From Verrucomicrobiia bacterium (lineage in GTDB: Bacteria > Omnitrophota > Omnitrophia > Omnitrophales > Aquincolibacteriaceae): a stretch of DNA of 64,000 bases. The notes beneath the pieces were generated by a model. The model did no database searches and had not been told where the DNA came from. It worked only from the letters and a program-made list of their open reading frames with translations. The first letter of the stretch is position 1. Each line of letters opens with the position of its first letter. The position numbers were made by a program, and so were the translations under genes. Location: NCBI GenBank assembly GCA_035495615.1, contig DATJFP010000097.1:4495-68494 (forward strand), in the 5' to 3' direction. This document shows, one piece after another, positions 9,879 to 45,213 of the stretch.

Positions 9879-11597
9879 ATGAGCATCCAGGGGACTTCCT
9901 TGAACAGAACCTTTTATCACGCGATCGCGCTGGCCTCGGCCGGGGCGGGCGTCTGCCTTGCCGCGGCAAGCCTGCTGCATCCGGCATTCGCGCACGCGGC
10001 GTTCAACCGGCTTTCCTTTTATATCCTGGCGCTCGTTGTGGCGGCCTGGGCCTCGGCGCTGAAAGAATGCGCGGACGCGCACCCGCCGGACTGGCGCGCC
10101 TTTCTCAGGGAATACGGTCCCGGCCTTGCCTTCTGCCTGACGGCCGCGGCTTTTATTTTTATTTCCGTGCGCCCGTATTTCCGCATCCTGGACGACGAGA
10201 CCTGCCTGCTCTCTGTGTCCAAATCCATGCTGGCCGAAAGAAGCGTCGCCAACATCACGCAGGGCAAATGGCTTTTTTACAATCTCAGCGAAGGCGATTT
10301 CAACGAGCCCAAACGCCCGTTCCTGTTTCCTTTCCTGACGTATCTCCTTCACGTCCTGTTCGGCTACCGCACGGTGAATCCGTTCGTCCTCAACTTCCTA
10401 TCGCTGGCCGGCCTTTTTTTCACGGCATTTCATCTTTTGAAGCGCAACGCGGGGAGTGCCGCGGGAGTCGCGGGCGTCCTGCTCATCGCGGCGCAGCCGG
10501 TCGTAATCCAGGCCGCGACTTGCGCCGGGTTCGATCTTTTCACCGCGTTCCTTGTCTTCGCGGGCATGGCCCTCGTCGACGCCTATTTCCTCAAGCCCTC
10601 TCCCGCGAAATTAAGCCTGGTGTGGATGCATCTGATCCTGCTGTCGCACGCGCGTTACGAAGGCGTGCTCTATCTCGCCGTGGCTGCGGTCCTGCTGTTC
10701 TGGATGGGCGCGCTGAGATTCCGCTCGTGGAACGATTCTCTGGTTTACGCGCTGACGCCGCTCATGCTGCTGCCGGTTTTACTGCAGCGCCTGTATGTTG
10801 AGACGGACCTGCAGAATCCGGCCGGCGTGAAGCCTTTTTCGTTCGCGCATTTCCTCCATCACAACGCGGACTTCCTCAAGAGCCTGGGGCGCTTTGACTT
10901 TGCGCTGCCGTACGCCACGCCGGTCAACATCCTGGGTGTCGTGTCCGGAATTATTCTGACCACGGCCTTTTTCGAAAAGCGCTGGCCCGCAGCCCCGGCC
11001 CGGCGCAGCGCGGTCGTGGTGTCTGCGGCCATGTTCGGCGCGTACTGGACCGTGATGAACGCGCATTTCGGGGAGTTCCTGCGCCTGGAAGACGGAAGCC
11101 GCGTCATGGCGCTGATGGCGATCGTGCTCGCGTTTCTCGCGGCCCTGCTGCTCGGCCGCCTGGCGGTGTTCCGGCAAAGGCCGGCGCTGCTTGTCGCGCT
11201 GTCGCTTTCCGTGTTCATTCTTTACCACCGCTTCAGCGTCGAAAATCGATTCCAGAACGCCCTTAACCGGCCGCGTGAATACCGCATCGTGATGGATTTT
11301 CTGGGGAAGCAGTTCCCTCAAAGCATGATGGTCGTTTCCAACATGCCGCAGCTTTACCCGGTGCAGAATTACGGGGCCGTGAATTTCGACACGGCCAACA
11401 ATAATCGCGCCGCTTTCCTGAAGGAGCTCAAAGACGGGCTCTACCATCATATCTTCGTGATCCAGGAAATCGATTACGCCACGGGACAGGCCATTCACGA
11501 TACCGCGCTCGATCCCGGATATCCGCTCGAGCCGGTTTACGAAACCCAGCGCGAGCCCGGCATTCTCCTGCGCATCTCCAAGGTGGTGGCGCCGTGA
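9879..11597 (+). CDS. GT-C-fold-like integral membrane glycosyltransferase candidate (ArnT/PMT-like), paralog 1 of 4
   Basis: 572 aa with about 11-13 TM helices and a soluble C-terminal domain. It shares conserved blocks with the next three genes: DDETCLLSVSKSML after TM3 (predicted periplasmic Asp-Glu), KRPFLFPF, AAQPVV.QAAT, ARYEGV, REYR, IFVIQEI and ISKVV. Confidence 0.45.
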   Translation: MSIQGTSLNRTFYHAIALASAGAGVCLAAASLLHPAFAHAAFNRLSFYILALVVAAWASALKECADAHPPDWRAFLREYGPGLAFCLTAAAFIFISVRPYFRILDDETCLLSVSKSMLAERSVANITQGKWLFYNLSEGDFNEPKRPFLFPFLTYLLHVLFGYRTVNPFVLNFLSLAGLFFTAFHLLKRNAGSAAGVAGVLLIAAQPVVIQAATCAGFDLFTAFLVFAGMALVDAYFLKPSPAKLSLVWMHLILLSHARYEGVLYLAVAAVLLFWMGALRFRSWNDSLVYALTPLMLLPVLLQRLYVETDLQNPAGVKPFSFAHFLHHNADFLKSLGRFDFALPYATPVNILGVVSGIILTTAFFEKRWPAAPARRSAVVVSAAMFGAYWTVMNAHFGEFLRLEDGSRVMALMAIVLAFLAALLLGRLAVFRQRPALLVALSLSVFILYHRFSVENRFQNALNRPREYRIVMDFLGKQFPQSMMVVSNMPQLYPVQNYGAVNFDTANNNRAAFLKELKDGLYHHIFVIQEIDYATGQAIHDTALDPGYPLEPVYETQREPGILLRISKVVAP

Positions 11598-13330
11598 AGA
11601 AACAGCAGCGTCCCGCCCCCCAGATGGCCGAAAGCCCGGCTGCCGGAAAAATCGTGGCCGCTCTTTTTCTGATCGCTGCCGGCGGGCTTGCCGCCGCGGG
11701 TTTTGCGAACCGGGATTTCATGCTGCAGTGCTTCCTGCGGCTTTCCTATTATATAGTGTGGCTGCTCGCTGCCCTGTGGGCCGTGATCGCGGGCGAATCG
11801 GTCCGGAAGCACGGCCCCGCGGTGAGGGGATTCCTGAAAGAAAACGCGGGCGGGATTCTCTTCTCATTCCTTCTGGCCGCCGCGGTCTTTGTTTCCGCGC
11901 CGCCTTATTTCCGCATGCTGAGCGACGAAACCAACCTTTTGTCCGTTTCCAAATCCATGCTCTTCAACCGCTCGACGGCCAATACACTGGAAGGTTTTTT
12001 CCAGTACTTCAATTTCTCGCCGCTGCATTACACCTACGAGAAAAGGCCTTTTCTTTTTCCGTTCGCCGTTCATCTGCTGCATCTTCTCCTTGGGTATCAT
12101 CCCTGGAACGCGTTTGCCGTGAACTTCCTCGTGCTGGGAACGCTTTTCAGCGCGGTTTTTATTTTCCTGAAGCGCGCCGCCGGATTTTGGGCCGCATTGG
12201 GCGGCGTTCTCTTTTTCGCGGCGCAGCCGGTGATCACGCAATCCGCGTCGTCGGGAGGATTCGATCTTTTCTTTGTTCTCTTTCTCGTGCTGGCCTTCGC
12301 GGCGCTCGCGCTTTATCTGGAAAACCCGGGTCCGGAAACGCTGCTGCTTTTCTGGTTCCAGCTCCTGCTGTTCATCCATACGCGCTACGAAGGCCCCATG
12401 CTCGCCGCTGTCCTCGTGCTCGCGCTTTTGGCTCTCGGCAAAATAAAACCGCGCCAATTTCTGGACGCGCCTTATTACGCGGCCACGCCGCTGCTCGTCC
12501 TTCCCGTGCTGTGGCAGAGGATCCTGACGCAGGGCCTGGAAACGCCGCCTGGCGTCAAAGCTTTTTCCGTGGAGCATTTCCTGCGGCACCAGAAGGAATA
12601 CGTGCAAAGTCTGGGCGATTTCGGATTCTTCCTGCCGTATGCCACGCCCGTCAACATTCTCGGGACCTGCGCGCTCGTGTACTTCGCTTTTCTCTACGCG
12701 TCGCGCCGCTGGCCCGCGTCACCGGCGTCCCGCACGCTTGTGACGGCCGCGGCGGCTGTCCTCGCCGCCGAATGGGTGCTGACCAACGCGTACTTTGGCG
12801 AGCTGCTTGCGGACCCGGGCGGCGGCCGCGTCCTGACCTTCGCGTTTCTGGTCCTGTCGGTTCTCGCGGTCCTGTTTCTGGTGCGGCTCGCGCCTTTCAA
12901 GCGCAAGCCTTTCCTCGCCGCGGTGCTGGGCCTTTTCTGCTTCGGCCTTTATCATCCGCTCACGATCGAAAATCGGTTTCTCAACGCCCTCGATCTGCCG
13001 CGTGAATACCGCACGGTGCTGGAATTTCTGCAGCGGCAGGACGGCCGCAACATCCTGATCGTGGCGTCGCGGCCGGGCCTGTATACCGTGCACGATTACG
13101 GCGCCGTCAAATTCGAATGGGCCAACGAGCACAAGGAAGATCTTTTGATGAAATTGAAGCAGCGTCTCTACAGCGATATTTTCGTGATTCAGAACATCGA
13201 CGATGCCACGGGGCAGATCCTGGAAGACGGCGGGCTGGACGGCAGCTATGCGCTGGAAACCGTCTTCATCACTGCGCGCCAGCCCGATCCTCTGGGTTAT
13301 ACGCGGATTTCCAGGGTCGTGAACCGTTAG
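11594..13330 (+). CDS. GT-C-fold-like integral membrane glycosyltransferase candidate, paralog 2 of 4
   Basis: 578 aa. The GTG start overlaps the upstream stop codon. Carries SDETNLLSVSKSML, KRPFLFPF, AAQPVITQSASS, TRYEGP, REYRTV, IFVIQNID and ISRVV. Confidence 0.45.
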   Translation: MKKQQRPAPQMAESPAAGKIVAALFLIAAGGLAAAGFANRDFMLQCFLRLSYYIVWLLAALWAVIAGESVRKHGPAVRGFLKENAGGILFSFLLAAAVFVSAPPYFRMLSDETNLLSVSKSMLFNRSTANTLEGFFQYFNFSPLHYTYEKRPFLFPFAVHLLHLLLGYHPWNAFAVNFLVLGTLFSAVFIFLKRAAGFWAALGGVLFFAAQPVITQSASSGGFDLFFVLFLVLAFAALALYLENPGPETLLLFWFQLLLFIHTRYEGPMLAAVLVLALLALGKIKPRQFLDAPYYAATPLLVLPVLWQRILTQGLETPPGVKAFSVEHFLRHQKEYVQSLGDFGFFLPYATPVNILGTCALVYFAFLYASRRWPASPASRTLVTAAAAVLAAEWVLTNAYFGELLADPGGGRVLTFAFLVLSVLAVLFLVRLAPFKRKPFLAAVLGLFCFGLYHPLTIENRFLNALDLPREYRTVLEFLQRQDGRNILIVASRPGLYTVHDYGAVKFEWANEHKEDLLMKLKQRLYSDIFVIQNIDDATGQILEDGGLDGSYALETVFITARQPDPLGYTRISRVVNR

Positions 13331-13336
13331 GAAAAC

Positions 13337-15040
13337 ATGGAAACTAAAAAACCAGCCGTGACCTGGTTTGCCGCCGCGCTGTGGCTTTTGCCCGCGCTTG
13401 TCCTGGGCGCCGCCACGACTCACAATCCGGATTTCATGCGCGAATGCTTCCTGGGCGGAAGCTTTTATTGCATGGCGCTGCTGGTTCTCGGCTGGACCGT
13501 CGTGTTCAAGGAATGGTGGGACGCGCGGAGGCCGGACATGCGCGGCTTTCTCCGCGAATACGGCGCGGGGCTTTTGTTCTGCGGCGCGCTGACCGCGGTC
13601 ATCTTCGTCTCTGTGCATTCTTACTTCCGCGTGCTCAGCGACGAGGCCAATCTCCTGTCAGTCTCGCGGTCCATGACGTTCCAGAGAAGCGTCCACAATG
13701 TCATCCAGGGCAAATGGACCTTTTATAATTTGCGCCCCTACGAATTTATTTACGAAAAGAGGCCGTTTCTGTTTCCGTACCTGCAGTACTGGACGCACGT
13801 TTTCCTCGGCTACCGGCCCTCGAATCCCTTTGTCGTGAATGCCGCGTGCACACTCGTCCTTTTCTGCTGCCTGTTCGTGGGCCTGCGGAAAAATCTTGGG
13901 GATGCGGCCGCTTATGCCGGCGTCCTGCTCGCCGCGGCGCAGCCGGTCCTGACGCAGACCGCGACTTCCGCCGGCATCGACATGGTTTTCGTCATGCTGA
14001 TCACGGCGTCGCTGCTCACGCTCCAGGTCTTCCTGGACCGTCCCGGCCCCGAGATTTTTGCGTTGCTGTGGGCGAGTCTCATGCTCGTCGCCAATGCGCG
14101 CTATGAAGGGCCGATGTATGCGGTCCTGGTCTTTGCGCTTCTCGCGTGCATGAAAAAAATCCGGCGCGAGTGGTTCGGCAGCTCTTTTGTTTTTGCCGCG
14201 ACGCCGCTCATGCTGCTGCCGACGTTCTGGCAGCGGGTGTTCCTTAAGACGGACCTCGAAGTCCCGGCCGGCAAACAGGCGTTCTCGCTGGCGAACTTTA
14301 TCGAGAACAGCATGGAATTCATCCGGTCCCAGTTCCGGTTCGACTACTTTCTGCCCGTCGCGAACGTCGTGAATATCCTCGGCTTCGCGGCAATCGTGTG
14401 GCTGGCAGTGGCGCTTGCGCGCCGGAAATGGCCGCATGATCCCGCGCAAAGGCCCTTTGCCTTGATCGCGTCTTCAGCCGCCGCGGCCTACGCCGTGGTC
14501 GTCTATGCCCATCACAGCAGCTTCATCACCGATCCCGCGGGCGCGCGCCTCATGACGTTCGGCTGCCTGGTGCTTTCTCTTCTTTGCCTGCTCTTTCTCC
14601 TGGCGCTTTTTCCGGGCGAGACAGGGCGCGCCGGCGTGCTGCTTTTTTCCGTGGGTATGTTCTGCCTGTATCATCCGGTGTCCGTGCGTAATTATTTTTC
14701 GAACGGCCTTGTCCTTTGCCGGGAATACCGCATGGTGCGCGATTTCCTGAAGGACCAGTGGCCGCGCAATTATCTCGTCGTGACGAACGTGCCCGGGCAT
14801 TACACGGCGCTGGACCGGGGCGCGGTCAAATTCACGTATGCCAACGAACGCAGGGATGAGCTGCTCACGCAGTTCGGCAAGCATCTCTTCAGCGAGATCT
14901 TCGTGGTGCAGGAAGTCGACGTCTCGGGCGCGGTCGCGCAGGAAACCCTGCTGGATCCGGCTTACAAACTGGAACCCGTTTTCGAGTCCGATCACAAGAT
15001 GGGTGTCTTTATCCGCATCTCGCGCGTGGTGAACCCATGA
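13337..15040 (+). CDS. GT-C-fold-like integral membrane glycosyltransferase candidate, paralog 3 of 4
   Basis: 567 aa. Carries SDEANLLSVSRSMT, KRPFLFPY, AAQPVLTQTATSA, NARYEGP, REYRMV, IFVVQEVD and ISRVV. Confidence 0.45.
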   Translation: METKKPAVTWFAAALWLLPALVLGAATTHNPDFMRECFLGGSFYCMALLVLGWTVVFKEWWDARRPDMRGFLREYGAGLLFCGALTAVIFVSVHSYFRVLSDEANLLSVSRSMTFQRSVHNVIQGKWTFYNLRPYEFIYEKRPFLFPYLQYWTHVFLGYRPSNPFVVNAACTLVLFCCLFVGLRKNLGDAAAYAGVLLAAAQPVLTQTATSAGIDMVFVMLITASLLTLQVFLDRPGPEIFALLWASLMLVANARYEGPMYAVLVFALLACMKKIRREWFGSSFVFAATPLMLLPTFWQRVFLKTDLEVPAGKQAFSLANFIENSMEFIRSQFRFDYFLPVANVVNILGFAAIVWLAVALARRKWPHDPAQRPFALIASSAAAAYAVVVYAHHSSFITDPAGARLMTFGCLVLSLLCLLFLLALFPGETGRAGVLLFSVGMFCLYHPVSVRNYFSNGLVLCREYRMVRDFLKDQWPRNYLVVTNVPGHYTALDRGAVKFTYANERRDELLTQFGKHLFSEIFVVQEVDVSGAVAQETLLDPAYKLEPVFESDHKMGVFIRISRVVNP

Positions 15041-16758
15041 GCCCGCAAGTGACGGCACAGCAGCCCAAAGCGCCCCGTCTTTTCTCGCTCGCCGCGATCA
15101 GCGCGGCCCTTGCCATCGGCGTCTGGACCGCGCTCGACCGCGGACGGCTCCTGATGTGGTTTTACCGCTATTCGTATTACGCCATGGGCCTGCTGTTTTT
15201 CATGTGGATCTACGGCCTGGTCCTGGCCTGGCGCGAGGCAAAGCCGGATGCGCGCCGCTTCCTGAAAGAAAACGGGGCGGGCCTTCTTTTTTGCCTGGCG
15301 CTCGCGGCCCTTGTTTTTATTTCTTCGCGGCCGCAATACCGCCTCTTGAGCGACGAGACGAACCTTCTCTCCGTTTCCAAATCCATGCTCTACGACAAGC
15401 ACGTCGCCAACGTCACGCAGGGCAAATGGTTTCATTACAATTTTTACGCCGAAGAGTACCAGCCGGAGAAAAGGCCATTCCTTTTTCCGTTCGTGACCTA
15501 CCTGGCGCATACGATCCTGGGCTTCCATGCCTGGAACCCGTTCGTGGTGAATTTTTTCTCGCTCGCGGCGCTGCTCTTTCTCGTCTTCGTCTATTTAAGG
15601 AAGCATGCGTCCGGGGCCGCGGCCTATGCGGCCGTGCTGCTGGCCGCGGCGCAGCCGGTCGTGACGCAGACCGCGACTTCCGCCAGCATGGATATGCTGG
15701 CCCCGCTGGTCTTTCTCGCGGTGCTTCTCACCGTGAAATATTTTCTCGACCGGCCCGGCCCGGACAGTTTTTTGCTGCTCTGGCTGCACCTGTTGCTGCT
15801 GGCCAATGCGCGCTATGAAGGCCCGCTCTATGCGGCGCTTGTTCTCGGGCTTTTGGCCTGGTCCGGACGACTCAAGGCCGGCTATTTCCGTTCTTCGGCG
15901 GTTTATCCGCTGACACCGCTCGTCCTTCTCCCGGTTTTCTGGCAGCGTTTCATGATCCCGACCGATCTCGAAGTGCCTCCGGGCGTGAAGCCCTTTTCGC
16001 TGGAGCACCTTTTCCAGCACACTCTGGATTTTCTCGGGACGCTCACGCGTTTCGATTTCGTGCTGCCGTACGCCACGCTCGTCAATCTCGCGGGACTGGC
16101 CGGCCTTCTTTTCTTCGCGACCCGATTCGCGGCCCGCCGGTGGCCCGCGGAAAAGCCGCAGAGGCAGGCGGTTTCCATCGCGGCTTTTTTGTTCCTGGCT
16201 TACTGGGTCCTCATCAACGCGCACTTCAGCCCGTTCGCGCTGATCTACGACGGAAGCCGCCTTCTCGTGCCCGCGGTGCTCGCGCTCTCGGTTTTTGCCG
16301 CGCTTCTTCTGGAACGGCTGCCGCTTTTCAAACGCCGGCCCTTTTATCTTTTGATGGCGTCGTTTTCGCTCTTTTGCCTCTACCATCCGGTCACGATCGA
16401 AAACAGGGGATGGAATGCCGTCCTGCTCACGCGTGAATACAAATTCATGACGGAATTTTTCGAAAAGCAGAAACAGAAAAATTTTCTCGTCGTCGCTTAC
16501 CGCACCGGCATCTACGCGGCGCGCGAATACGGGGCCGTGAATTTTTATTCCGCGAACGCCAACAAAGACGAATTGCTGGGCGAATTCGGCCATCATCTCT
16601 TCAGCGATATTTTCGTGATCCAGGAAATCGTCTGCGCGACGGATGAGCCCACGCCCGAAACCCGGCTGGATCCCGCCTTCCACCTGCAAAAAATCCTGGA
16701 GTACGCGAAACAGTACCCCGCCTCCAGCAAAATGCGCCTCTCCCGGGTCGTGTTGTAG
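15037..16758 (+). CDS. GT-C-fold-like integral membrane glycosyltransferase candidate, paralog 4 of 4
   Basis: 573 aa. The ATG start overlaps the upstream stop (ATGA). Carries SDETNLLSVSKSML, KRPFLFPF, AAQPVVTQTATSA, NARYEGP, REYKFM, IFVIQEI and LSRVV. Confidence 0.45.
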   Translation: MSPQVTAQQPKAPRLFSLAAISAALAIGVWTALDRGRLLMWFYRYSYYAMGLLFFMWIYGLVLAWREAKPDARRFLKENGAGLLFCLALAALVFISSRPQYRLLSDETNLLSVSKSMLYDKHVANVTQGKWFHYNFYAEEYQPEKRPFLFPFVTYLAHTILGFHAWNPFVVNFFSLAALLFLVFVYLRKHASGAAAYAAVLLAAAQPVVTQTATSASMDMLAPLVFLAVLLTVKYFLDRPGPDSFLLLWLHLLLLANARYEGPLYAALVLGLLAWSGRLKAGYFRSSAVYPLTPLVLLPVFWQRFMIPTDLEVPPGVKPFSLEHLFQHTLDFLGTLTRFDFVLPYATLVNLAGLAGLLFFATRFAARRWPAEKPQRQAVSIAAFLFLAYWVLINAHFSPFALIYDGSRLLVPAVLALSVFAALLLERLPLFKRRPFYLLMASFSLFCLYHPVTIENRGWNAVLLTREYKFMTEFFEKQKQKNFLVVAYRTGIYAAREYGAVNFYSANANKDELLGEFGHHLFSDIFVIQEIVCATDEPTPETRLDPAFHLQKILEYAKQYPASSKMRLSRVVL

Positions 16759-16866
16759 GGGATGGCCTGCTTTTTGCTTTAATCAAAGGCAAGGAACCTT
16801 GGAGAGCCGGCATTTCTCTGCTAAGCTAGGGGGGTTTTTCGCCGATAATTCAGGCTCGGATAGGAC

Positions 16867-19362
16867 ATGGCCAAAAAAACCGGAGAGACCGCGAGAATGC
16901 CGAAGAAAAAGACCAACGGCCCATGGCAATTGGTCCATAAGGACATGACCAAAGAGGGGCTCAAGACCTCTTTTTGGTCGAGCCTCTATTACGCCCTGGC
17001 CAAGGACCGCTACACCACCACGTCCCACGACGACTTCATGGCTCTGGCCATCACCGTGCGCGACCGCATCGTCGAGCGCTGGATCGCCACACAGCAGGGC
17101 TATCACAGCGAAAACGCCAAACGCGTCTACTATCTTTCCATGGAATTCCTGATCGGCCGCCTGCTGGGCAGCAACATGATCAGCCTGAATTTGTGGGATG
17201 AGGCCAAGAAGGCGCTGGGGGAAATGGGCCTGGACCTGGAAAAGCTCATCGACGAAGAACCGGACGCCGGCCTCGGCAACGGAGGCCTGGGCCGCCTGGC
17301 CGCCTGCTTCCTGGATTCCATGGCCACGCTCGGCATTCCCGCGCACGGCTACGGCATCCGCTACGACTACGGCATTTTCAATCAGCGCATCCTGGGCGGC
17401 CATCAGGTGGAATCGCCGGACGAATGGCTGAAGCTCGGCAATCCCTGGGAATTCCCGCGCCCGGAATATTCCGTTCTCGTGAAATTTTACGGCGACACCT
17501 TTTTCTATCACGATCACCAGGACAAACTGCGCGTCCTGTGGCGCAACACGCAGGACGTCGTCGCCATGCCGTACGACATCCCGGTACCAGGCTACAAGAA
17601 CGACGTGGTCAATACGCTGCGGCTGTGGTCGGCCCGCGGTTCCGAAGAGTTCGACCTGGAATATTTCAACACCGGCGACTACGAGCGCGCGGTCTACAAT
17701 AAAATGTTCTCGGAAAACATCTCCAAGGTGCTTTACCCCAACGACGCGAATTCCCTGGGCCGCGAGCTGCGCCTGAAGCAGGAGTATTTTTTCACCGCCG
17801 CGTCCATCTTCGACATCATCCGCCGCTTCAAGTCCGGCAACGACGATTTTGCGAAGCTGCCCGAGAAGGCGGCCATCCAGCTGAATGACACGCATCCCGC
17901 CCTTGCCGTGGCGGAGTTCATGCGCGTCCTCGTGGACGAGGAACAGCTGGAATGGGAAGACGCGTGGGACATCACGGTGCGGACGTTTGCCTACACCAAC
18001 CACACGGTCATGCCTGAAGCGCTCGAATGCTGGTCGGTCGCGCTTTTCGAGAAGCTCCTGCCGCGGCACATGCAGATCATCTTCGAAATCAACGTCCGGT
18101 TCCTGCGGCAGGTCGCGAACAAGTACCCGGGCGACACAGAACGCCTGAGACGGATGTCGCTGATCGAGGAAGGGGCGAACAAGCAGGTCCGCATGGCCTT
18201 TCTGGCGATCGTGGGCAGCCATTCCGTGAACGGCGTTTCGGAGCTGCACTCCAATCTCCTGAAGAACCACCTGTTCAAGGATTTTTACGAATTCTTCCCG
18301 GCTAAATTCAACAACAAGACCAACGGCATCACGCCGCGGCGCTGGCTGCTGAAATCCAATCCCGGGCTGTCGAATCTGATCACAGAGACGATCGGCGGCA
18401 AGTGGGTGACGGACCTGGATCAGCTGAAGAAACTTTCCTCCTGCCAGAAGGACGCGTCGTTCCGCAAGAGCTGGCGCCAGATCAAGGAAGACAACAAGCG
18501 CAAGCTCGCCGACGACATTTATCACAATACGGGCATGAAGGTGGACCCGCAGGCCATGTTCGACGTCCAGGTCAAGAGGATTCACGAGTACAAGCGCCAG
18601 GTGCTGTTCGCTTTTTACATCATTTCGGAATACCTGAAGCTGAAGGAAAACCCGAAAGCCTTCGTGCAGCCCCGTGTTTTCCTTTTCAGCGGCAAGGCCG
18701 CGCCGGGATACACCATGGCGAAACTCATCATCAAATTTATCACGAGCATCGCCTACGTCATCAATTACGACAGCGCGGTCAAAGACCAGCTCAAGGTGAT
18801 TTTTCTGGAGAATTACCGGGTTTCGCTCGCGGAACGGATTTTTCCGGCCAGCGACCTCTCCGAACAGATCTCGACCGCGGGCACGGAGGCCTCGGGCACG
18901 GGCTGCATGAAATTCATGATGAACGGCGCGCTGACCGTCGGCACCTGGGACGGGGCGAACATCGAAATGGCGCAGGCCGTAGGTCAGGGGAACATCTTCA
19001 CGTTCGGGCTGAGGGCGGACGAGGTTCTGAATCTCCAGCGCGGCGGCTACAACCCGCGGGACTATATCCAGCAGTCGCCGGTCCTGTCAGAAATCATCCG
19101 GATGATCCAGTCGAATTTCTTTTCGCCCGTCGAGTACGGCATCTTCGAGCCGCTGGTGAACAGCCTCCTCAACCGGGATTCGTTTCTAGTCTGCGCGGAT
19201 TTCGATTCTTATTGCAAGACGCAGGACTCGATCTCGCGCAACTTCAAAGACCCCGACGATTGGGTCCGCAAGGCCATCGTGAACGTCGCCAATTCCGGAA
19301 AATTTTCCAGCGACAGGACGATCCTGGAATATGCCCGCGACATTTGGGACGTGATCCCTTAA
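16867..19362 (+). CDS. glgP: glycogen/alpha-glucan phosphorylase
   Basis: 831 aa. PLP-lysine signature region EASGTGCMKFMMNGALTVGTWDGANIEM; whole-length similarity to GT35 phosphorylases. Confidence 0.9.
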   Translation: MAKKTGETARMPKKKTNGPWQLVHKDMTKEGLKTSFWSSLYYALAKDRYTTTSHDDFMALAITVRDRIVERWIATQQGYHSENAKRVYYLSMEFLIGRLLGSNMISLNLWDEAKKALGEMGLDLEKLIDEEPDAGLGNGGLGRLAACFLDSMATLGIPAHGYGIRYDYGIFNQRILGGHQVESPDEWLKLGNPWEFPRPEYSVLVKFYGDTFFYHDHQDKLRVLWRNTQDVVAMPYDIPVPGYKNDVVNTLRLWSARGSEEFDLEYFNTGDYERAVYNKMFSENISKVLYPNDANSLGRELRLKQEYFFTAASIFDIIRRFKSGNDDFAKLPEKAAIQLNDTHPALAVAEFMRVLVDEEQLEWEDAWDITVRTFAYTNHTVMPEALECWSVALFEKLLPRHMQIIFEINVRFLRQVANKYPGDTERLRRMSLIEEGANKQVRMAFLAIVGSHSVNGVSELHSNLLKNHLFKDFYEFFPAKFNNKTNGITPRRWLLKSNPGLSNLITETIGGKWVTDLDQLKKLSSCQKDASFRKSWRQIKEDNKRKLADDIYHNTGMKVDPQAMFDVQVKRIHEYKRQVLFAFYIISEYLKLKENPKAFVQPRVFLFSGKAAPGYTMAKLIIKFITSIAYVINYDSAVKDQLKVIFLENYRVSLAERIFPASDLSEQISTAGTEASGTGCMKFMMNGALTVGTWDGANIEMAQAVGQGNIFTFGLRADEVLNLQRGGYNPRDYIQQSPVLSEIIRMIQSNFFSPVEYGIFEPLVNSLLNRDSFLVCADFDSYCKTQDSISRNFKDPDDWVRKAIVNVANSGKFSSDRTILEYARDIWDVIP

Positions 19363-19653
19363 TTCCGCCCGTCTCCTCTTCTGCCCCTCTAACTGCTTTT
19401 GTTTTCGAGACTTGCAGGCCGAACCCTGTTTCCCGGCGCGGTTTTATAAGGAAACTCTTTACGCTATTCTCAGGGTTCCACGGCTGATTTTCTGATTCCA
19501 TAATAAAAGAAGAAGTGTATACTAATCAGTCCCGGACCCTGCCTCCGGGATGCTCGGGTTCATTGTGATATAAAAGGCATGTTTTTTGCTTTGTAAATCA
19601 TCAAGCCCTCAGATTTAAATTGCAAAAAATCTGGTCTAATCGGGGAAGTTCCC

Positions 19654-20748
19654 ATGGCTCCGCTACGCATGAAAAAAACAGACAAAGTGAAAGAATCGCA
19701 GCCTGCCAAGAAGATTTCCGCCAAGACCAAACCCGCCGCGCGTTTGCAGAAAAAACCCGAAGAAAAAAAACTTCCCGTCCGCCGCAATCTCGTCGCCGAA
19801 GCGCGCCTGAAGGCCGCGCTGCCGTCCAAGCCGCTCAGAACTCCGGCCAAGGCCGCTAAGGAAACGCTGACTTCCCCGGAAATTTTCGGGCCGGCCAAAT
19901 CCGCGCCTGATGCGGCCTCCGTGCGTGAAATTTTCAAGATGCCGGCGGAACTGCCGGCCAATTACGGCGATAACATGATTTACCTGCTCGTGCGCGACCC
20001 GTATTACCTTTACACGTATTGGGAAATCCAGAAGGACCATCAGGAGCGGACGCTCGCGAAACTCGGCGGCAATTGGGCGGACGTCCGGTCCATCCTGCGC
20101 ATTTATGACACGAGCGACAAAAAAAGCGCCGCGTCTTTTTTCGACATCGAACTCCAGAACATGGCCGTCAACTGGTTCATTAATGTAGAACCGGGCCGCA
20201 ATTATGTCGTAGAAATCGGACTGCTGCATAAAGACGGCCGGTTTCTGGCGCTGGCGCGATCGAACGAAGTCGCCACGCCGCGCGCGTCTGTCTCCGACGT
20301 GCTGGACGAAGAATGGATGGGCCTGGATTTTGAAAAGCTCTTTGCCCTGTCCGGCGGTTTCCACGCGGGCAGGAGCTCCTCCGAAGACGTCAAGGAATGG
20401 CTGCAGAAGCACATCCAGGCGGGCATTTCTTCGGGATCCGGCGGGAGCATCTCGAGCCTTTCCAGCCCGGTCAAAGGAAAGCAGCGCGGCTTCTGGTTCG
20501 TGCTGGATTGCGAAGTCATCGTCTACGGCGCCACCGAACCTGACGCCGCCGTGACGTTCCAGGGCCGTCCCGTGAAGCTGCGTCCGGACGGCACGTTCTC
20601 TTTCAGGTTTTCCCTCCCGGATGGAAAGTTCGTATTCGACGCGCGCGCGGTTTCGGCCGACGGCCTGGAAGAGCGCGTGATTACCCCCACCGTGCAAAGG
20701 ACCACGGACCGACCGGCCCCCGTCATCAAATCTGAAGAAAAGGTGTAA
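19654..20748 (+). CDS. DUF4912-domain protein with basic low-complexity N-terminus
   Basis: A Lys/Pro/Ala-rich N-terminal tail is followed by YLLVRDPYYLYTYWEI and the rest of a DUF4912-like domain. Lies directly upstream of a GH57 gene. Confidence 0.5.
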   Translation: MAPLRMKKTDKVKESQPAKKISAKTKPAARLQKKPEEKKLPVRRNLVAEARLKAALPSKPLRTPAKAAKETLTSPEIFGPAKSAPDAASVREIFKMPAELPANYGDNMIYLLVRDPYYLYTYWEIQKDHQERTLAKLGGNWADVRSILRIYDTSDKKSAASFFDIELQNMAVNWFINVEPGRNYVVEIGLLHKDGRFLALARSNEVATPRASVSDVLDEEWMGLDFEKLFALSGGFHAGRSSSEDVKEWLQKHIQAGISSGSGGSISSLSSPVKGKQRGFWFVLDCEVIVYGATEPDAAVTFQGRPVKLRPDGTFSFRFSLPDGKFVFDARAVSADGLEERVITPTVQRTTDRPAPVIKSEEKV

Positions 20749-20755
20749 GGTCGTC

Positions 20756-22339
20756 ATGGAAAAAGGGCTTTTGTCCATCATCTTGCATGCCCACTTGCCT
20801 TTCGTGCGGCATCCCGAGCACGAATATTTCCTGGAAGAAAATTGGTTTTACGAGGCGATCACCGAGACTTACGTCCCGCTGATCAACATGTTCGAAGGCC
20901 TGGAAAAAGACAGGGTGGCGTGCCGCATCACCATGTCGCTCACGCCAACACTGATTTCGATGCTGCGGGACGGCCTGCTCCAGGATCGTTACGTACGCCA
21001 CATCGACAAGCTGATCGAACTGGCCAACAAAGAGGTGGAACGCACCCGGTTCCAGCCGGAATTCAACGAAACCGCGCTTCATTATTATTGGCATTTTACG
21101 CAGGCGCGGGAGACTTTTGTGAACCGCTACGGCAGGGACCTCACCACCGCGTTCAAGAAATTCCAGGACGCGGGGCTGCTCGAAATCATTACCTGCTCGG
21201 CCACGCACGCGTTTCTCCCGCTCAATCACCGGACCGGCGCTTCGGTGCGCGCGCAGATTTCCACCGCGGTCCGGCAGTATGAAGACGTGATGGGGCGCAG
21301 GCCTGCCGGCATCTGGCTTCCCGAATGCGGCTATTATCCCGGCGTGGACTCGTTCCTCAAGGAAGAGGGCATCCGCTATTTCCTGGTCGACACGCACGGG
21401 CTTCTCTACGCGTCGCCGCGTCCCAAGTACGGCATTTTCGCGCCGGTCTATTGTCCGTCGGGCGTGGCGGCTTTCGGGCGCGACGTGGAATCTTCCAAGC
21501 AGGTCTGGTCCGCCATCGAAGGCTATCCCGGCGACGCGGACTACCGCGAATTTTACCGCGACATCGGCTTTGACCTCGACTACGACTACATCAAGCCCTA
21601 CATTTCTCCCGACGGTCTGCGGGTCAATACAGGCATCAAGTATTACCGCATCACGGGCTCGAACCACAAGCAGCCTTATGTCCGTTCGCGCGCCGTGGAA
21701 AAAGCCGCGAGTCATGCCGGCAATTTCATGTACAACCGCGAAAAGCAGGTGGAATACCTGTTCGAATTCCTCGGGCGCAAGCCGGTCATCGTGGCGCCCT
21801 ACGACGCGGAACTCTACGGCCACTGGTGGTATGAAGGCCCCGAGTTCCTGAACTTTCTCATCCGCAAAGTCGCGTTCGACCAGAAGACGGTACGCCTGGC
21901 CACGCCGTCGGACTACCTGAGGGAATATCCGGTCAACCAGGTTTCCACACCTTCCACGTCGAGCTGGGGGTACAAGGGTTACGCGGAAACGTGGCTGAAC
22001 GACACCAATGGCTGGATCTACAAGCATCTGCACAAGGCGGCGCTGCGGATGAGCGAATTGGCCAACCGCTTCAAGGATCAGGATCCGCTGAAGCAGCGGG
22101 CACTCAACCAGGCCGTGCGCGAACTCTTTCTCGCGCAGTCGAGCGATTGGGCTTTCATCATGCATACCGGCACCATGGTCCCGTACGCGGAAAAAAGGAC
22201 CAAGGACCACATCCTCAATTTCACCAAGATCTACGACGACCTGATGCAAAACCAGGTCAACGAAAGCTGGCTGGCGGAATTGGAAAGCAGGGACAACATT
22301 TTCCCCAAAGTGGATTATCACGTCTTCTGCGGGGAATAA
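20756..22339 (+). CDS. glycoside hydrolase family 57 protein (GH57 1,4-alpha-glucan branching-enzyme-like, DUF1957 C-terminus)
   Basis: The N-terminus SIILHAHLPFVRHPEHE…ENWFYEAITETYVPLI is characteristic of GH57 branching enzymes. 527 aa. Confidence 0.7.
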   Translation: MEKGLLSIILHAHLPFVRHPEHEYFLEENWFYEAITETYVPLINMFEGLEKDRVACRITMSLTPTLISMLRDGLLQDRYVRHIDKLIELANKEVERTRFQPEFNETALHYYWHFTQARETFVNRYGRDLTTAFKKFQDAGLLEIITCSATHAFLPLNHRTGASVRAQISTAVRQYEDVMGRRPAGIWLPECGYYPGVDSFLKEEGIRYFLVDTHGLLYASPRPKYGIFAPVYCPSGVAAFGRDVESSKQVWSAIEGYPGDADYREFYRDIGFDLDYDYIKPYISPDGLRVNTGIKYYRITGSNHKQPYVRSRAVEKAASHAGNFMYNREKQVEYLFEFLGRKPVIVAPYDAELYGHWWYEGPEFLNFLIRKVAFDQKTVRLATPSDYLREYPVNQVSTPSTSSWGYKGYAETWLNDTNGWIYKHLHKAALRMSELANRFKDQDPLKQRALNQAVRELFLAQSSDWAFIMHTGTMVPYAEKRTKDHILNFTKIYDDLMQNQVNESWLAELESRDNIFPKVDYHVFCGE

Positions 22340-22367
22340 CCCCCGTTCAAACCGAAAGGAGCACGAC

Positions 22368-22589
22368 ATGCGAGATGAATATAATGCCATCGGCGAAGCC
22401 GCCGGAAAAATCTACCGCGCCCTCGAACAGGGGGAACAGGCAGTTTCCAAACTGCAGAAAGCCTCCCAGGTCAGCGATGAAGCGCTTTTCAATCAGGCGC
22501 TCGGCTGGCTCGCGCGCGAAGAGAAAGTCACGTTCAAGGCCGGAAAGACGCCGAAAGTGGCGCTTTGTTCCGCCGGAGCGGTCCGCTAA
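22368..22589 (+). CDS. small hypothetical protein (possible winged-helix)
   Basis: 73 aa ORF between the two GH57 genes. An SD-like aaaggagc lies 8 nt upstream. No motif recognised with confidence. Confidence 0.3.
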   Translation: MRDEYNAIGEAAGKIYRALEQGEQAVSKLQKASQVSDEALFNQALGWLAREEKVTFKAGKTPKVALCSAGAVR

Positions 22590-22755
22590 TCCGCGGCAGG
22601 GGAGAGATTCCTGTTCGCGGGAATCTCTCCTTGTCCGTGTCCCCAAGCCCCCAACGGGCTCGAAGCAGTTTCTTTTTGCAATTCCAGCGTTCCTTCAGCA
22701 TAATCTTTCAGGGACGTCCCTTCACCGTTATATCCCAGGCATTTAGGAATCGTTC

Positions 22756-25254
22756 ATGACAAAACCGGTCTGCATTTGCTTTCACGGGCATTTTTACCAG
22801 CCCCCGCGCGAAAATGCCTGGATCGAAGACATCGAACGCCAGGAAAGCGCCGCCCCTTTCCACGACTGGAACGAGCGCATCTATTCCGAGTGCTACCTCC
22901 CCGGCGCGCGCGCCCGCGTCATCGGCCACGACGGCAAGATCGTGGACATCGTCAGCAATTACGAAAAAATGAGTTTCAACTTCGGGCCCACGCTCATGTC
23001 CTGGATCGAGATCAAGCATCCGGACACCTATCAGGCCATCCTCCAGGCCGACCGGCACAGCATGAAGATGCACCAGGGGCACGGCAACGCCATCGCTCAG
23101 GCTTACAATCACGTGATCCTGCCGCTCGCGAATGCGCGCGACAAAAAAACTCAGGTGCACTGGGGCCTGCGGGAATTCCGGCACCGTTTCGGGCGCGAGG
23201 CCGAGGCTATGTGGCTTCCGGAAACGGCCTGCAATGAAGAAACTCTGGAGGCGCTGGTGGAAGAGGGCGTGAAGTTCATCCTCCTCGAGCCGCATCAGGC
23301 CGAAGAAGTGAAGCCGCTTGCCGGCGGCGAATGGCGCGGCGTGGGTTCCGGACAGATCGACCCGCGCCATGCTTACCGCTGCTTCCTCAAGAAAGACCCG
23401 TCCAAGCACATCGACATTTTTTTCTACGACGGCCCGATTTCCAAGTCCATCGGTTTCGAAAGCGTGCTTGCCGACGCCAAGCACCTCATGCACCGCATCG
23501 AAGGCGCGATCGTGGACCACGGACACAAGCCGCAGCTCATCCATGTCGCGACCGACGGCGAAACTTACGGCCATCACAAGCCGTTCGGCGAGCGCAGCCT
23601 CGCGTACTTCCTTTATACGATGGCCCGGGAGAAGGGCTACCGCGTCGTCAATTACGGGGAATACCTCGAAGAGAACCCGCCCGCGTTCCAGGTGCGCATC
23701 AAAGCCGGCGAGAACGGCGAGGGCACGTCCTGGAGCTGCGCGCACGGGGTCAAGCGCTGGAAGGAGCATTGCGGGTGCCGCGGCGGCGGGCCGGGGGAAT
23801 GGACGCAGCATTGGCGCAAGCCTTTGCGCGACGCGCTCGACTGGCTGCGTGATGAGCTCGCAAAAGTTTTCGAGGCGCAGGGCGCGCCGTACCTCAAGGA
23901 CGTCTGGGAGGCGCGCGACGATTACATCCACGTGATCCTCGACCGCAAGCCGCCCGTCGTTAAGGCGTTCTTCACGCGGCATGCCACGCACGCGCTCGCG
24001 CGCAAGGACATGACCTTGTGCCTGCAGCTTTTGGAGATGCAGCGCCACGCCATGCTGATGTACACGAGCTGCGGCTGGTTTTTCACCGAGATCTCGGGCA
24101 TCGAGACCGTGCAGATCCTGCAGTACGCGGCCCGCGCCATGCAGCTTGCCCAGAGCGTCTCGGGCGTGAACCTGGAGCCGCAGTTCCTGGAAAAGCTCGC
24201 GCTCGCCAAAAGCAACGTCGAGGCTTACAAGGACGGCCGCGGCGTTTACGAGCAGCTGGTCAAGTCGAGCATCGCGACGCTCGAGCACATCGTAAGCTAT
24301 TACGCGATCGGGTCGATCTTCGAGGATTATTACCCGCACAAGGAAAACCTCGATATTTACAGCTTCAACCTGCAGGTGGTCCAGCAGCGCAAGGAATCGT
24401 CCGGGAACGTGACGCTCAACATCGGCCGCGTGAAGATCACCTCCAAGGTCACGCTCGACGAGAAAGACCTGATCTTCGTGGCCGTGCAGATCGGGCTTTA
24501 CGATTTCCGCTGCTCGGTCAAGGCGTTCGCGACCGACCGGGAACTGGAGAAGCTGGACCAGGAACTCTTCGACGAGCTGCACACGGGACACATCATCGAG
24601 CTGTTCAAGACGCTCGACCATTACTTCGGGGAAAAATATTTCGCGCTGAAAGACCTGCTGCTGGAAGACCGCCTCAGGATCATCACGCGGCTCACGCGCG
24701 AGCAGATCGAAAAGGTCAGCAAGTTTTACGAGCGGGTCTACGACGAAAACCGCAAGATCAACGAGATCTACCGCTCCATCAACCTGCCTATCCCTTCGGA
24801 ATTCCGTTACGCGGCCGAGCACGTGCTCGCCAAAAGGCTGATGGAGGTGCTCCAGCAGCTTTCCAAACAGGGATTCCCGATCCGCAGGATGACCGCGGCA
24901 AACCGCATCATCGACGCGGCCAAATCGCTGAATGTGGAAATCACCAAGGGGCAGATCACCGAGTACCTGAATGCCGAACTGCGGCGGACGATCCAGCGGT
25001 TCGTCCAGAAGCCGGGGACAGACCTCATCCAGGAATGCCTGTGCATCTACAAACTTTCCAAAAGGATCGGGATCGAACTCAACCCCATGGACGCCCAGGA
25101 CGATCTGTTTCAGCGGGTGCGGCATTGGCGGGAAAATCCCCAGGACATTCCGCCGGCCATCATGCCGTACGCCAATCAGTTTCTCCAGCTCATGGCGTCG
25201 CTGCATCTTTCGACCGCAGAATTGAAAAAACTGATGCAGAAATCGATGGCTTAA
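22756..25254 (+). CDS. GH57-family alpha-glucan-active enzyme with C-terminal DUF3536-like extension
   Basis: N-terminal CICFHGHFYQPPRE GH57 signature. 832 aa with a long helical C-terminal region. Confidence 0.65.
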   Translation: MTKPVCICFHGHFYQPPRENAWIEDIERQESAAPFHDWNERIYSECYLPGARARVIGHDGKIVDIVSNYEKMSFNFGPTLMSWIEIKHPDTYQAILQADRHSMKMHQGHGNAIAQAYNHVILPLANARDKKTQVHWGLREFRHRFGREAEAMWLPETACNEETLEALVEEGVKFILLEPHQAEEVKPLAGGEWRGVGSGQIDPRHAYRCFLKKDPSKHIDIFFYDGPISKSIGFESVLADAKHLMHRIEGAIVDHGHKPQLIHVATDGETYGHHKPFGERSLAYFLYTMAREKGYRVVNYGEYLEENPPAFQVRIKAGENGEGTSWSCAHGVKRWKEHCGCRGGGPGEWTQHWRKPLRDALDWLRDELAKVFEAQGAPYLKDVWEARDDYIHVILDRKPPVVKAFFTRHATHALARKDMTLCLQLLEMQRHAMLMYTSCGWFFTEISGIETVQILQYAARAMQLAQSVSGVNLEPQFLEKLALAKSNVEAYKDGRGVYEQLVKSSIATLEHIVSYYAIGSIFEDYYPHKENLDIYSFNLQVVQQRKESSGNVTLNIGRVKITSKVTLDEKDLIFVAVQIGLYDFRCSVKAFATDRELEKLDQELFDELHTGHIIELFKTLDHYFGEKYFALKDLLLEDRLRIITRLTREQIEKVSKFYERVYDENRKINEIYRSINLPIPSEFRYAAEHVLAKRLMEVLQQLSKQGFPIRRMTAANRIIDAAKSLNVEITKGQITEYLNAELRRTIQRFVQKPGTDLIQECLCIYKLSKRIGIELNPMDAQDDLFQRVRHWRENPQDIPPAIMPYANQFLQLMASLHLSTAELKKLMQKSMA

Positions 25255-27374: not shown

Positions 27375-27445
27375 GAAGAGCAGAGAAAAAGTCAGTGCAG
27401 CAACATCCGGGATTAAAGCCCCGGGTGAAGTCAACCAGCAGTACA

Positions 27446-27452
27446 AAGGAGG
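27446..27452 (+). promoter_or_regulatory. Shine-Dalgarno AAGGAGG 6 nt upstream of the precursor ATG
   Basis: A perfect AAGGAGG precedes the ATG at 27458. This supports the short 88-aa precursor over the longer ORF from 27395. Confidence 0.5.
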
Positions 27453-27457
27453 ATTCA

Positions 27458-27724
27458 ATGGAAAAGAACAAGAAGAAGGCTTTATTGGCTGCTTCCATGG
27501 CCGGTCTCATGGCCGTCGCGGGCGCTGTGATTCTGCCCGGACTCGCCCATGCGGAAGGCGTTCAGTGCCATGGCGTGAACAGCTGCAAAGGCACGGGCGA
27601 ATGCGGCGGCAAGGGTCATAGCTGCGCCGGTAAGAACGCCTGCAAGGGCCAGGGCTGGATCACGGCTGCCGATGACGCTGCCTGCACGGCTCAGGGCGGC
27701 ACGCTGAAAGAAGCGGCTGAATAA
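27458..27724 (+). CDS. Cys-rich secreted peptide, candidate bufferin-like RiPP precursor (DUF2282 / BUF_6/12Cys-like)
   Basis: 88 aa with signal peptide MEKNKKKALLAASMAGLMAVAGAVILPGLAHA. The core has six Cys in a regular C-x-G-x-N/G-x-C-K-G array (CHGVNSCKGTGECGGKGHSCAGKNACKGQGW…AAC). It sits immediately upstream of the DUF692 enzyme. Confidence 0.5.
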   Translation: MEKNKKKALLAASMAGLMAVAGAVILPGLAHAEGVQCHGVNSCKGTGECGGKGHSCAGKNACKGQGWITAADDAACTAQGGTLKEAAE

Positions 27725-27742
27725 TTAAACGCCGAGGTTGAC

Positions 27743-31624: not shown

Positions 31625-31631
31625 GAAGGGA

Positions 31632-32374: not shown

Positions 32375-32377
32375 TGG

Positions 32378-33919: not shown

Positions 33920-33947
33920 GATTTTGAAAATCCTGTTTTTCCGAAGG

Positions 33948-36164: not shown

Positions 36165-36330
36165 GAAGTCGGGTTTTAGCCGGGTGGAATCCAGGAACCC
36201 GGCTGCCCCGCTTGCCGGGACAAAATTTACTACGACATTTTTCGGAACTTACTGAATTTTAATCTTTTAAGCGTTCGAGCCGATAATATTGTTTCCTGAA
36301 CCGGCCTTTTGGCCGTCGGAAAGGAAGGAC

Positions 36331-37062: not shown

Positions 37063-37144
37063 GGGTCGCTTTTGTGAGTTTTGGCGGGTACACTAATAGG
37101 GACGCGTCATCGCTTAACCGGTTATCCACCTCCTCGAGGGTTTC

Positions 37145-38137: not shown

Positions 38138-38139
38138 AC

Positions 38140-40289: not shown

Positions 40290-40293
40290 GGCC

Positions 40294-41334: not shown

Positions 41335-41343
41335 CGGAGCCGC

Positions 41344-42327: not shown

Positions 42328-42354
42328 GCGGCTCTGCCGCCGGCGGGTACTCGC

Positions 42355-43407: not shown

Positions 43408-43459
43408 TTCCGCCCCTGCTCCGGCCCAGCCCCTCGGGCGGAGAAATTGAAGGAATCAT

Positions 43460-45208: not shown

Positions 45209-45213
45209 GAGCC

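Follow-up and report, generated by a model that had tools for sequence, protein, structure and literature searches.

Within a 64,000-nucleotide (nt) stretch of contig DATJFP010000097.1 (assembly GCA_035495615.1), here referred to as the window, four consecutive genes at positions 9879 to 16758 encode paralogous membrane proteins of about 570 amino acids (aa) each. We consider it likely that this array is a single operon of four active glycosyltransferases of the GT-C fold that use lipid-linked sugar donors and have diverged from one another in specificity. The evidence comes from the organization of the genes, from the age and retention of the duplications, from a structural model, and from residues conserved across a family that extends well beyond this genome.

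The four-gene array

In the public Verrucomicrobiae metagenome-assembled genome (MAG) record, the array carries locus tags VL688_12285 to VL688_12300, and paralogs 1 and 4, at least, are labelled hypothetical. The four open reading frames (ORFs) lie on the same strand and have exactly the lengths given in a preliminary description of this DNA:

9879-11597, + strand: paralog 1 (gene 1), ORF of 572 aa (NCBI VL688_12285, NCBI protein P0005)
11594-13330, + strand: paralog 2 (gene 2), ORF of 578 aa
13337-15040, + strand: paralog 3 (gene 3), ORF of 567 aa, labelled "glycosyltransferase family 39 protein" by NCBI
15037-16758, + strand: paralog 4 (gene 4), ORF of 573 aa (NCBI VL688_12300, hypothetical protein)

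A single operon had been proposed from overlapping stop and start codons, GTGA at 11594 and ATGA at 15037, and both overlaps can be read directly from the sequence. Genes 1 and 2 share 4 nt at 11594-11597 (gcgccGTGAag, a GTG/TGA overlap), genes 3 and 4 are joined by an ATG/TGA overlap at 15037-15040 (cccATGAgc), and the TAG of gene 2 at 13328-13330 is followed by a 6-nt spacer and the ATG of gene 3 at 13337. With every junction either overlapping or 6 nt long, and with gene order and junction types kept in a relative (contig L068, described below), the assignment of the four genes to one operon is supported. The upstream HIT-family gene ends 47 nt before gene 1, and about 110 nt separate the end of the array from the downstream glycogen phosphorylase gene; a weak terminator-like hairpin lies at 16755-16770, at the end of gene 4. 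A scan for promoter consensus sequences returned a single promoter-like site, on the wrong strand, and the corresponding terminator scan returned matches scattered within genes, which were uninformative. Two of the start codons have alternatives: the NCBI annotation begins gene 1 seven codons later, giving 565 aa, and gene 2 could begin at an ATG at 11624, in which case a 26-nt gap would replace the overlap.

The array is also distinct in base composition. AT skew is strongly negative (-0.21 to -0.26) within positions 10001-16000 of the window and is confined to the four genes, most likely because hydrophobic residues are encoded by T-rich codons on the coding strand.

Age and retention of the duplications

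The paralogy proposed in the preliminary description was borne out by alignment. The four proteins align end to end with 43-46% identity and 136 invariant columns, phmmer searches between them give E values of 1e-131 to 1e-136, and at the DNA level the genes repeat in register every 1712-1730 nt at 60-86% identity. The DNA repeat comparison found no near-identical tracts among the four genes, which therefore look like old duplicates and not like recent copies or conversion tracts. On this absence, the protein identities, and the tree described next, we reject recent duplication or gene conversion.

The contig L068 is syntenic with the window and carries orthologs of genes 2 to 4 in the same order:

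L068:1-252: paralog-2 ortholog, C-terminus only
L068, protein P0002: paralog-3 ortholog, 54% identical to paralog 3
L068:1972-3705: paralog-4 ortholog, 56% identical to paralog 4

In L068, a gap of 7 nt (6 nt in the window) separates the orthologs of paralogs 2 and 3, and an ATGA overlap joins those of paralogs 3 and 4, as in the window. Phylogeny had been suggested as a means of dating the duplications, and in a neighbor-joining tree paralogs 3 and 4 each group with their own L068 ortholog, which places the duplications before the split of the two genomes; paralogs 1 and 2 are sisters, and 3 and 4 do not form a sister pair. On this tree, the duplications are old and have been retained. Next after the paralog-4 ortholog, L068 encodes a glycogen phosphorylase 82% identical to that of the window, so that the adjacency of phosphorylase and array is itself kept. 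To judge from these identities (54-56% versus 82%), the GT-C genes have changed far more rapidly than the housekeeping gene beside them. Elsewhere in the family, locus L006 holds two copies that are each other's closest relatives (54% identity), and tandem duplication has therefore recurred independently.

Fold and conserved motifs

We modelled paralog 3 with AlphaFold2 (AF2) from an alignment of 19 sequences and obtained a mean pLDDT of 89.9 and a pTM of 0.90. A Foldseek search of the PDB with this model placed ArnT at the top (5f15, E 1.6e-8, TM-scores of 0.55/0.57), and the next 30 hits were all GT-C enzymes, comprising STT3/PglB/AglB, ALG12/9/3, EmbA/B/C, Pmt1/2/4, and AftB. Identities to these structural hits are 8-14%, and no one family is clearly closest. 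The GT-C fold that had been proposed from the sequence is thus recovered in the model, which superposes on solved GT-C enzymes, with ArnT giving the best global TM-score. As modelled, the paralogs form a GT-C_A-type family of their own, whose overall architecture comes nearest to that of ArnT.

Three N-terminal helices (7-29, 31-64, and 68-92) precede a large loop (EL1) in the model, as the preliminary description had predicted and as hydropathy also indicates. Within EL1, a beta-hairpin (121-138) separates a first helix (100-116) from a second (145-157); about ten more membrane helices follow, and the C-terminus forms an alpha/beta domain of about 110 aa (~459-567). An Asp-Glu (DE) pair, D102/E103, stands at the N-terminus of the first EL1 helix. 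This pair had been assigned to the first periplasmic loop. The pair itself is confirmed; given a cytoplasmic N-terminus, the loop is the second and the first large one. A K/R-rich loop at 58-74 in a hydropathy scan fits such a cytoplasmic N-terminus, with the DE loop outside. In E. coli ArnT, the PDET motif occupies residues 30-33, after one helix, and the first two helices of the window proteins are therefore regarded as a family-specific extension.

The DE pair and two further motifs, KRP and RYE, are kept in all four paralogs. The positions recorded are as follows:

Paralog 1: DE pair D106-E107 (nt 10194-10199); KRP at residues 145-147; RYE at residues 259-261
Paralog 2: DE pair D111-E112 (nt 11924-11929)
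Paralog 3: DE pair D102-E103 (nt 13640-13645); R142-P143; R255-Y256-E257
Paralog 4: DE pair D106-E107 (nt 15352-15357)

Because the three motifs are intact throughout, none of the four looks like a dead copy, and all are probably active. The longer list of conserved blocks in the preliminary description is essentially correct, with small deviations in paralog 1 (AAQPVVIQAATCAG and ISKVV) and paralog 4 (IFVIQEIVC). Among 84 diverse family members, only D102, R142, and R255 (paralog 3 numbering) are invariant, and a further set is kept in at least 90% of members (E103, P143, P147, H154, G158, N163, F165, N168, P203, E257, R404, Y445, and R462). Identity among the four paralogs peaks in the two EL1 helices (0.63 versus 0.44 overall), falls to 0.37 in the EL1 beta-hairpin, and is also lower in the N-terminal helices and in helix 215-234.

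GT-C enzymes share an active-site Asp in an EL1 motif (D55/E56 in ArnT, D77/E78 in Pmt1, and D281/D282 in EmbA), and K85 of ArnT, located where the second EL1 helix begins, binds the phosphate of the lipid carrier (PMC7801869). The invariant D102 and the nearly invariant E103 lie in the same place as the pairs of ArnT and Pmt1, as the preliminary description had supposed for a GT-C enzyme. By analogy we infer, on good grounds, that D102/E103 would be the catalytic pair and K141/R142 the phosphate ligand.

Extent and distribution of the family

Pfam PMT_2 (PF13231, a GT-C family that takes in ArnT-, Rgt-, and PMT-like proteins; gathering cut-off, 26.1 bits) matches paralog 3 at 31.3 bits, paralog 4 at 20.7, and paralog 2 at 18.1, with no match to paralog 1. 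Of the profile matches anticipated in the preliminary description, PMT_2 was therefore obtained above cut-off for paralog 3 alone, and Pfam PMT (PF02366) was not obtained at all. The NCBI "family 39" label of paralog 3 evidently derives from the PMT_2 match. PMT_2 is also the sole Pfam family to recur among the 84 members (52 of 84), through weak matches at E<=0.01 with a best E of 3.8e-9, and by these scores the family is a distant outlier of PMT_2.

A hidden Markov model (HMM) of the family was searched exhaustively against 1.84 billion cluster representatives (clusters at 50% identity) and recovered 1,796 representatives at E<=1e-3 and 1,110 at E<=1e-30; among the matches listed, nearly all are 540-600 aa long and aligned end to end. 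A word-indexed homolog search, with a single sequence or a profile, returned only 18 proteins, so that a word index under-reports this fast-evolving membrane family by about two orders of magnitude. From a motif-seeded scan of species-representative genomes we obtained 62 loci, all in MAGs, assigned to Omnitrophota, Planctomycetota, Elusimicrobiota, Bdellovibrionota, Nitrospinota, Desulfobacterota, Myxococcota, Gemmatimonadota, Verrucomicrobiota, and Proteobacteria. The distribution is almost exclusively diderm. When the fetched loci were scanned with the family HMM, one copy per locus was the rule, and two copies were found in L006, L013, and L067; paralogs 1 and 2 of the window score 793 and 788 bits, respectively. 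The family is thus a coherent, unnamed, and uncharacterized branch of the GT-C clan.

Genes adjoining family members in other genomes

We compared the surroundings of family genes by all-versus-all clustering of approximately 650 neighboring ORFs and by a Pfam census of 94 likely operonic neighbors. The only recurring neighbors are GT2 genes, other PMT_2 proteins, DUF92, and a clade-specific synteny in Bdellovibrionota. GT2 genes lie beside family genes in Desulfobacterota, Gemmatimonadota, Planctomycetota, and Omnitrophota, mostly as methyltransferase-GT2 fusions. The fusions located, in Desulfobacterota, Planctomycetota, and Gemmatimonadota, are the following:

L049:1256-2632: methyltransferase-GT2 fusion, 0 nt from the family gene
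L052:6610-8052: methyltransferase-GT2 fusion, 0 nt from the family gene
L035:8321-9772, - strand: methyltransferase-GT2 fusion, abutting the family gene
L013:5293-6696, - strand: methyltransferase-GT2 fusion, near the family gene
L005:1084-3516: methyltransferase-GT2 fusion with an additional N-terminal epimerase, abutting the family gene

Such a fusion is an unusual candidate donor synthase. In L018, a stand-alone GT2 gene lies about 0.9 kb upstream of the family gene. Periplasmic glycosylation systems follow a logic in which a GT2 enzyme precedes a GT-C enzyme, and GT2 genes adjoining family members fit that logic (PMC11127046).

In two loci, including L004:11837-13372, the gene that directly follows the family gene encodes a DUF92 integral membrane protein. 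We take DUF92 to be a TMEM19/VTE6-like family linked to prenyl-phosphate kinases, and its position here hints at a connection with the lipid carrier.

Genomic surroundings in the window

Upstream of the array, the window encodes a GGDEF protein, a hydrolase, a DUF6962 protein, a RumA-like RNA methyltransferase, and the HIT protein; downstream are glycogen genes, CdaA, YceI, and an MbnB-DUF2063 protein. The glycogen genes form a compact cluster directly downstream of the array at 16867-25254 (glycogen phosphorylase, DUF4912, GH57 branching enzyme, and GH57+DUF3536). The MbnB-DUF2063 gene (27743-29458, + strand) encodes a 571-aa enzyme of the MbnB/TglH/ChrH type (PF05114, E 3.8e-106), which acts on ribosomally synthesized and posttranslationally modified peptides (RiPPs), fused to DUF2063; upstream of it are a 109-aa ORF at 27395-27724, with no Pfam match, and the YceI gene. 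Positions 27395-29458 may represent a RiPP or metallophore-type locus.

A glycan island occupies approximately 29.5 to 50.2 kb of the window. Some of its genes, and one phosphatase gene beyond it, are as follows:

31635-32375, - strand: class-I methyltransferase, among three polytopic proteins
32378-33919, - strand: 513-aa protein (VL688_12360) with a GT-C fold in a moderate-confidence model
36289-37062, + strand: small GT2 of 257 aa (Pfam Glycos_transf_2, E 1.4e-14), candidate polyprenyl-phosphate-sugar synthase
46215-46910 and 46907-47590, + strand: tandem pair of small GT2 genes (Glycos_transf_2, E 3.8e-18 and 6.3e-19), candidate lipid-linked donor synthases
56372-57100, + strand: PAP2-superfamily phosphatase, 40 kb from the array

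The island opens with three back-to-back polytopic proteins of 709, 513, and 738 aa at 29495-36164. The 709-aa protein has just a sub-threshold DUF5360 match and the 738-aa protein is YfhO-like; this stretch looks like a further set of GT-C-type enzymes, heterogeneous in its make-up. The 513-aa protein had been described as a fifth, more divergent GT-C protein. Its GT-C fold is upheld in the moderate-confidence model, and a relationship to the four paralogs is not detectable by sequence: the protein has no Pfam match, the family HMM misses it, and hhalign against the family profile gives a probability of 0.25%. On the HMM and hhalign results we reject a diverged fifth paralog, and the protein is probably, on its model, a GT-C enzyme of a different family that stands outside the array.

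A membrane protein of approximately 554 aa, with no Pfam match, adjoins the family gene in four loci of Omnitrophota and Planctomycetota:

L018:4582-6246
L019:1249-2946, - strand
L055:3322-4986
L064:11642-13309, - strand

Its N-terminus is weakly similar to the 513-aa protein of the window (E 2e-5), which suggests that two GT-C families co-occur.

The remainder of the island, at 36289-50229, contains the three small GT2 genes, a GHMP kinase, E1 alpha/beta subunits (thiamine pyrophosphate dependent), a DegT aminotransferase, an FkbM methyltransferase, an NTP-transferase, and five epimerase/dehydratase genes; the tandem GT2 pair is flanked by epimerases, dehydratases, and the NTP-transferase. 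Their products could provide lipid-linked sugars of unusual kinds, possibly with methyl or amino groups. The GT2 genes of the window may be functionally tied to the array. The PAP2 gene could encode an undecaprenyl-diphosphate phosphatase or a lipid A phosphatase resembling LpxE/F.

Proposed mechanism and alternatives

We propose that the four old, diverged paralogs are inner-membrane glycosyltransferases of the GT-C_A type with an ArnT-like build, in which, according to the model, two family-specific transmembrane (TM) helices at the N-terminus lead into a GT-C core and a C-terminal alpha/beta domain of ~110 aa. By homology, each enzyme would work at the periplasmic face, where it would transfer a sugar from a polyprenyl-phosphate-linked donor to an acceptor in the envelope. 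The invariant Asp of the DE pair (D102) would act on the acceptor or on a metal, and R142 (of KRP, where the second loop helix begins) and R255 (of RYE) would hold the donor phosphate. The four copies would most likely differ in acceptor site or in linkage. For the acceptor, our leading guess, a tentative one, is the lipid A or core of lipopolysaccharide (LPS), which is favored because of the near-exclusive diderm distribution, the ArnT-like architecture, and the precedent of the Rgt enzymes considered below.

Several observations weigh against this proposal. The topology is based on homology and a crude hydropathy scan. At the sequence level, similarity to characterized GT-C enzymes is marginal: three of the four paralogs fall under the PMT_2 cut-off, an NCBIfam search of the paralogs gave no match at E<=1, and searches of PDB chain sequences with 4-sequence and 84-sequence profiles gave no relevant match, ArnT included. 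An hhalign comparison of the family profile with E. coli ArnT returned a nonsignificant probability of 0.46%; the sole segment it paired, LSDETNLLSVSKSM with ArnT 29-QPDETRYAEISREML, is not significant by itself. What is known of the family comes from sequence and modelling, and the present data do not distinguish LPS, protein, and polysaccharide acceptors. Nor is the array embedded in a glycan locus, surrounded as it is by HIT, RNA methyltransferase, and glycogen genes. The GT2 genes of the window are 19-31 kb downstream of it, the nearest at approximately 19.5 kb, and no flippase of the GtrA, SMR, or MATE type was found among the window's genes. Conserved context is largely absent over 60+ loci, and GT2 genes account for 4 of the 94 likely operonic neighbors.

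Assignment to several known families was considered and rejected. Against ArnT proper (GT83) stand the missing NCBIfam match, the failure of the profiles to find the ArnT chains of the PDB, the hhalign result, and the lack of arn neighbors. For the oligosaccharyltransferases STT3/PglB/AglB (GT66), there is no STT3 Pfam match, and the C-terminal domain of the window proteins measures only ~110 aa. In GT66, a large periplasmic domain at the C-terminus bears a WWDxG motif; the sole WWD in the array lies in a cytoplasmic loop of paralog 3 (KEWWDARR), and the other three paralogs have none.

The paralogs might instead be protein O-glycosyltransferases of the PMT/TMTC type that modify Ser/Thr residues of proteins in the periplasm, the inner membrane, or the outer membrane with sugar from a polyprenyl-phosphate donor, each paralog with different protein substrates. 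The matching Pfam model is PMT_2, the NCBI name of paralog 3 refers to family 39, and a DE rather than a DD pair in EL1 is a PMT signature, as in D77/E78 of Pmt1; ArnT also has such a pair in D55/E56, however, so that the DE pair does not discriminate (PMC7801869). We regard this alternative as unlikely. Pfam PMT (PF02366), MIR, and PMT_4TMC are absent from the four paralogs and from all 84 members, which excludes PMT (GT39) itself; the proteins have an ArnT-like build (~570 aa with a small C-terminal domain) to go with the best global TM-score to ArnT, and Pmt structures align over only ~270-340 residues of the model.

A different possibility concerns how the four products work together. They could be obligate hetero-oligomers, perhaps of 1 with 2 and of 3 with 4, that carry out successive steps in the synthesis of one periplasmic glycan or lipoglycan. 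The 4-nt overlaps occur exactly at the 1/2 and 3/4 junctions, and the 3/4 overlap and the 2/3 gap are kept in L068; the structural hits include solved complexes of GT-C paralogs (chains of Pmt1-Pmt2 and EmbA-EmbB), and the embCAB tandem array offers a precedent. Most genomes, though, have a single copy, so that the ancestral enzyme works without a paralogous partner, and the tree unites 1 with 2 but not 3 with 4, which leaves obligate pairing with a slim chance. Redundant isozymes, kept for dosage or regulation of the same reaction on the same acceptor, seem improbable. Their catalytic-motif residues are identical in all four copies, and duplications have arisen independently elsewhere (the L006 sisters at 54% identity, and the two copies each in L013 and L067). 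Against redundancy, the copies are only 43-46% identical, their separate orthologous lineages persist in at least two genomes and have evolved faster there than the housekeeping neighbor, divergence is concentrated in the EL1 hairpin and some TM helices, and the tight or translational coupling within one operon leaves no room for differential regulation.

It is very improbable that the proteins are not glycosyltransferases at all, whether transporters, O-antigen polymerases or ligases, or noncatalytic scaffolds with a GT-C fold like the GPI-transamidase subunits PIG-U and GAB1. The acidic pair of EL1 and the basic residues are invariant or nearly so in the 84 members, and transporters appear in the Foldseek results only at nonsignificant values (E>=0.04, TM-score ~0.1). 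A transporter or O-antigen polymerase family was the outcome that the preliminary description had named as contrary to its proposal; it was looked for in Pfam, NCBIfam, and the fold search, and no match to Wzy_C or a transporter and no matching fold was found, so these candidates are rejected.

The proposal of four active GT-C enzymes with diverged specificity could be extended to a bolder one, for which we see only a slender prospect. The family would then constitute a new GT-C family at the CAZy level, marked by the N-terminal two-helix extension, the EL1 hairpin, and an invariant D/R/R triad, and the array would encode a translationally coupled machine of four enzymes, with possible 1-2 and 3-4 heterodimers. 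This machine would install a multisugar, possibly methylated decoration on lipid A/core or another envelope lipid, with donors from synthases of the methyltransferase-GT2 type, like those found beside single-copy members in other phyla.

Significance and comparison with known systems

GT-C enzymes assemble the cell's outermost glycoconjugates or add sugars to them; the products include LPS modifications that determine antibiotic and phage susceptibility, protein glycans, and cell wall polymers. The family described here is represented by no entry of its own in Pfam, NCBIfam, or the PDB and occurs in poorly studied diderm phyla; the residues likely to act in its catalysis can now be named. With its four retained genes, the operon offers a natural experiment on the diversification of acceptor specificity. 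For the present, the use of these results lies in annotation and in a lead for the envelope glycobiology of uncultured diderms. They will not surprise a specialist. Their practical impact is modest: the fold, the chemistry, and tandem GT-C paralogs are well known, and the organism is uncultured.

ArnT (GT83; Cupriavidus metallidurans 5EZM/5F15 and E. coli b2257) is only 13-15% identical to the window family, which differs from it by two additional N-terminal TM helices and the EL1 beta-hairpin; in comparison with the E. coli arn operon, the array has no neighbors of the arnBCADEF type.

The best functional analogy for a set of several paralogs is Rgt, in which several ArnT-like proteins decorate one LPS. 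RgtA/B act on Kdo, RgtD/F act on the 4' and 1 positions of lipid A, and RgtE, a GT2 enzyme, makes the single polyprenyl-phosphate donor for these galacturonic acid (GalA) transferases (PMC4402001, PMC7663294). The likeness is one of published description, and the window paralogs are marginal PMT_2 matches. Unlike Rgt, the window has its four copies in a tight operon, with no adjacent donor synthase or lipid A phosphatase. The Rgt proteins themselves belong to Pfam PMT_2.

Tandem organization has its own precedents. GT-C paralogs stand in tandem in the mycobacterial embCAB operon, and both embCAB (GT53) and Pmt1-Pmt2 (GT39) are tandem or coexpressed GT-C paralogs that use polyprenyl-phosphate sugars and divide the acceptors between them. 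In contrast to the window proteins, Emb proteins are ~1,050-1,090 aa long with carbohydrate-binding domains, and PMTs carry MIR and PMT/PMT_4TMC domains.

Three-component systems (GtrA/GtrB/Gtr* and Citrobacter youngae ORF12-15, GT136) combine a GT2 synthase, a flippase, and a GT-C enzyme acting outside the cytoplasm (PMC11127046). The GT-C genes of the window differ from these in standing alone, with the GT2 genes at least 19 kb off and no flippase candidate found; the likeness is closer in several other phyla, where a GT2 gene, usually a methyltransferase-GT2 fusion, lies directly beside the family member.

Measured against these systems, fold and chemistry were already established, as were the catalytic motif and the existence of tandem or multiple GT-C paralogs (embCAB, Rgt, and Gtr). 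To these, the present analysis adds a large unnamed GT-C family, now delimited, whose members have two extra helices at the N-terminus and a hairpin in EL1; a conserved operon of four genes of this family in one Verrucomicrobiae lineage; and a methyltransferase-GT2 partner that recurs in other phyla.

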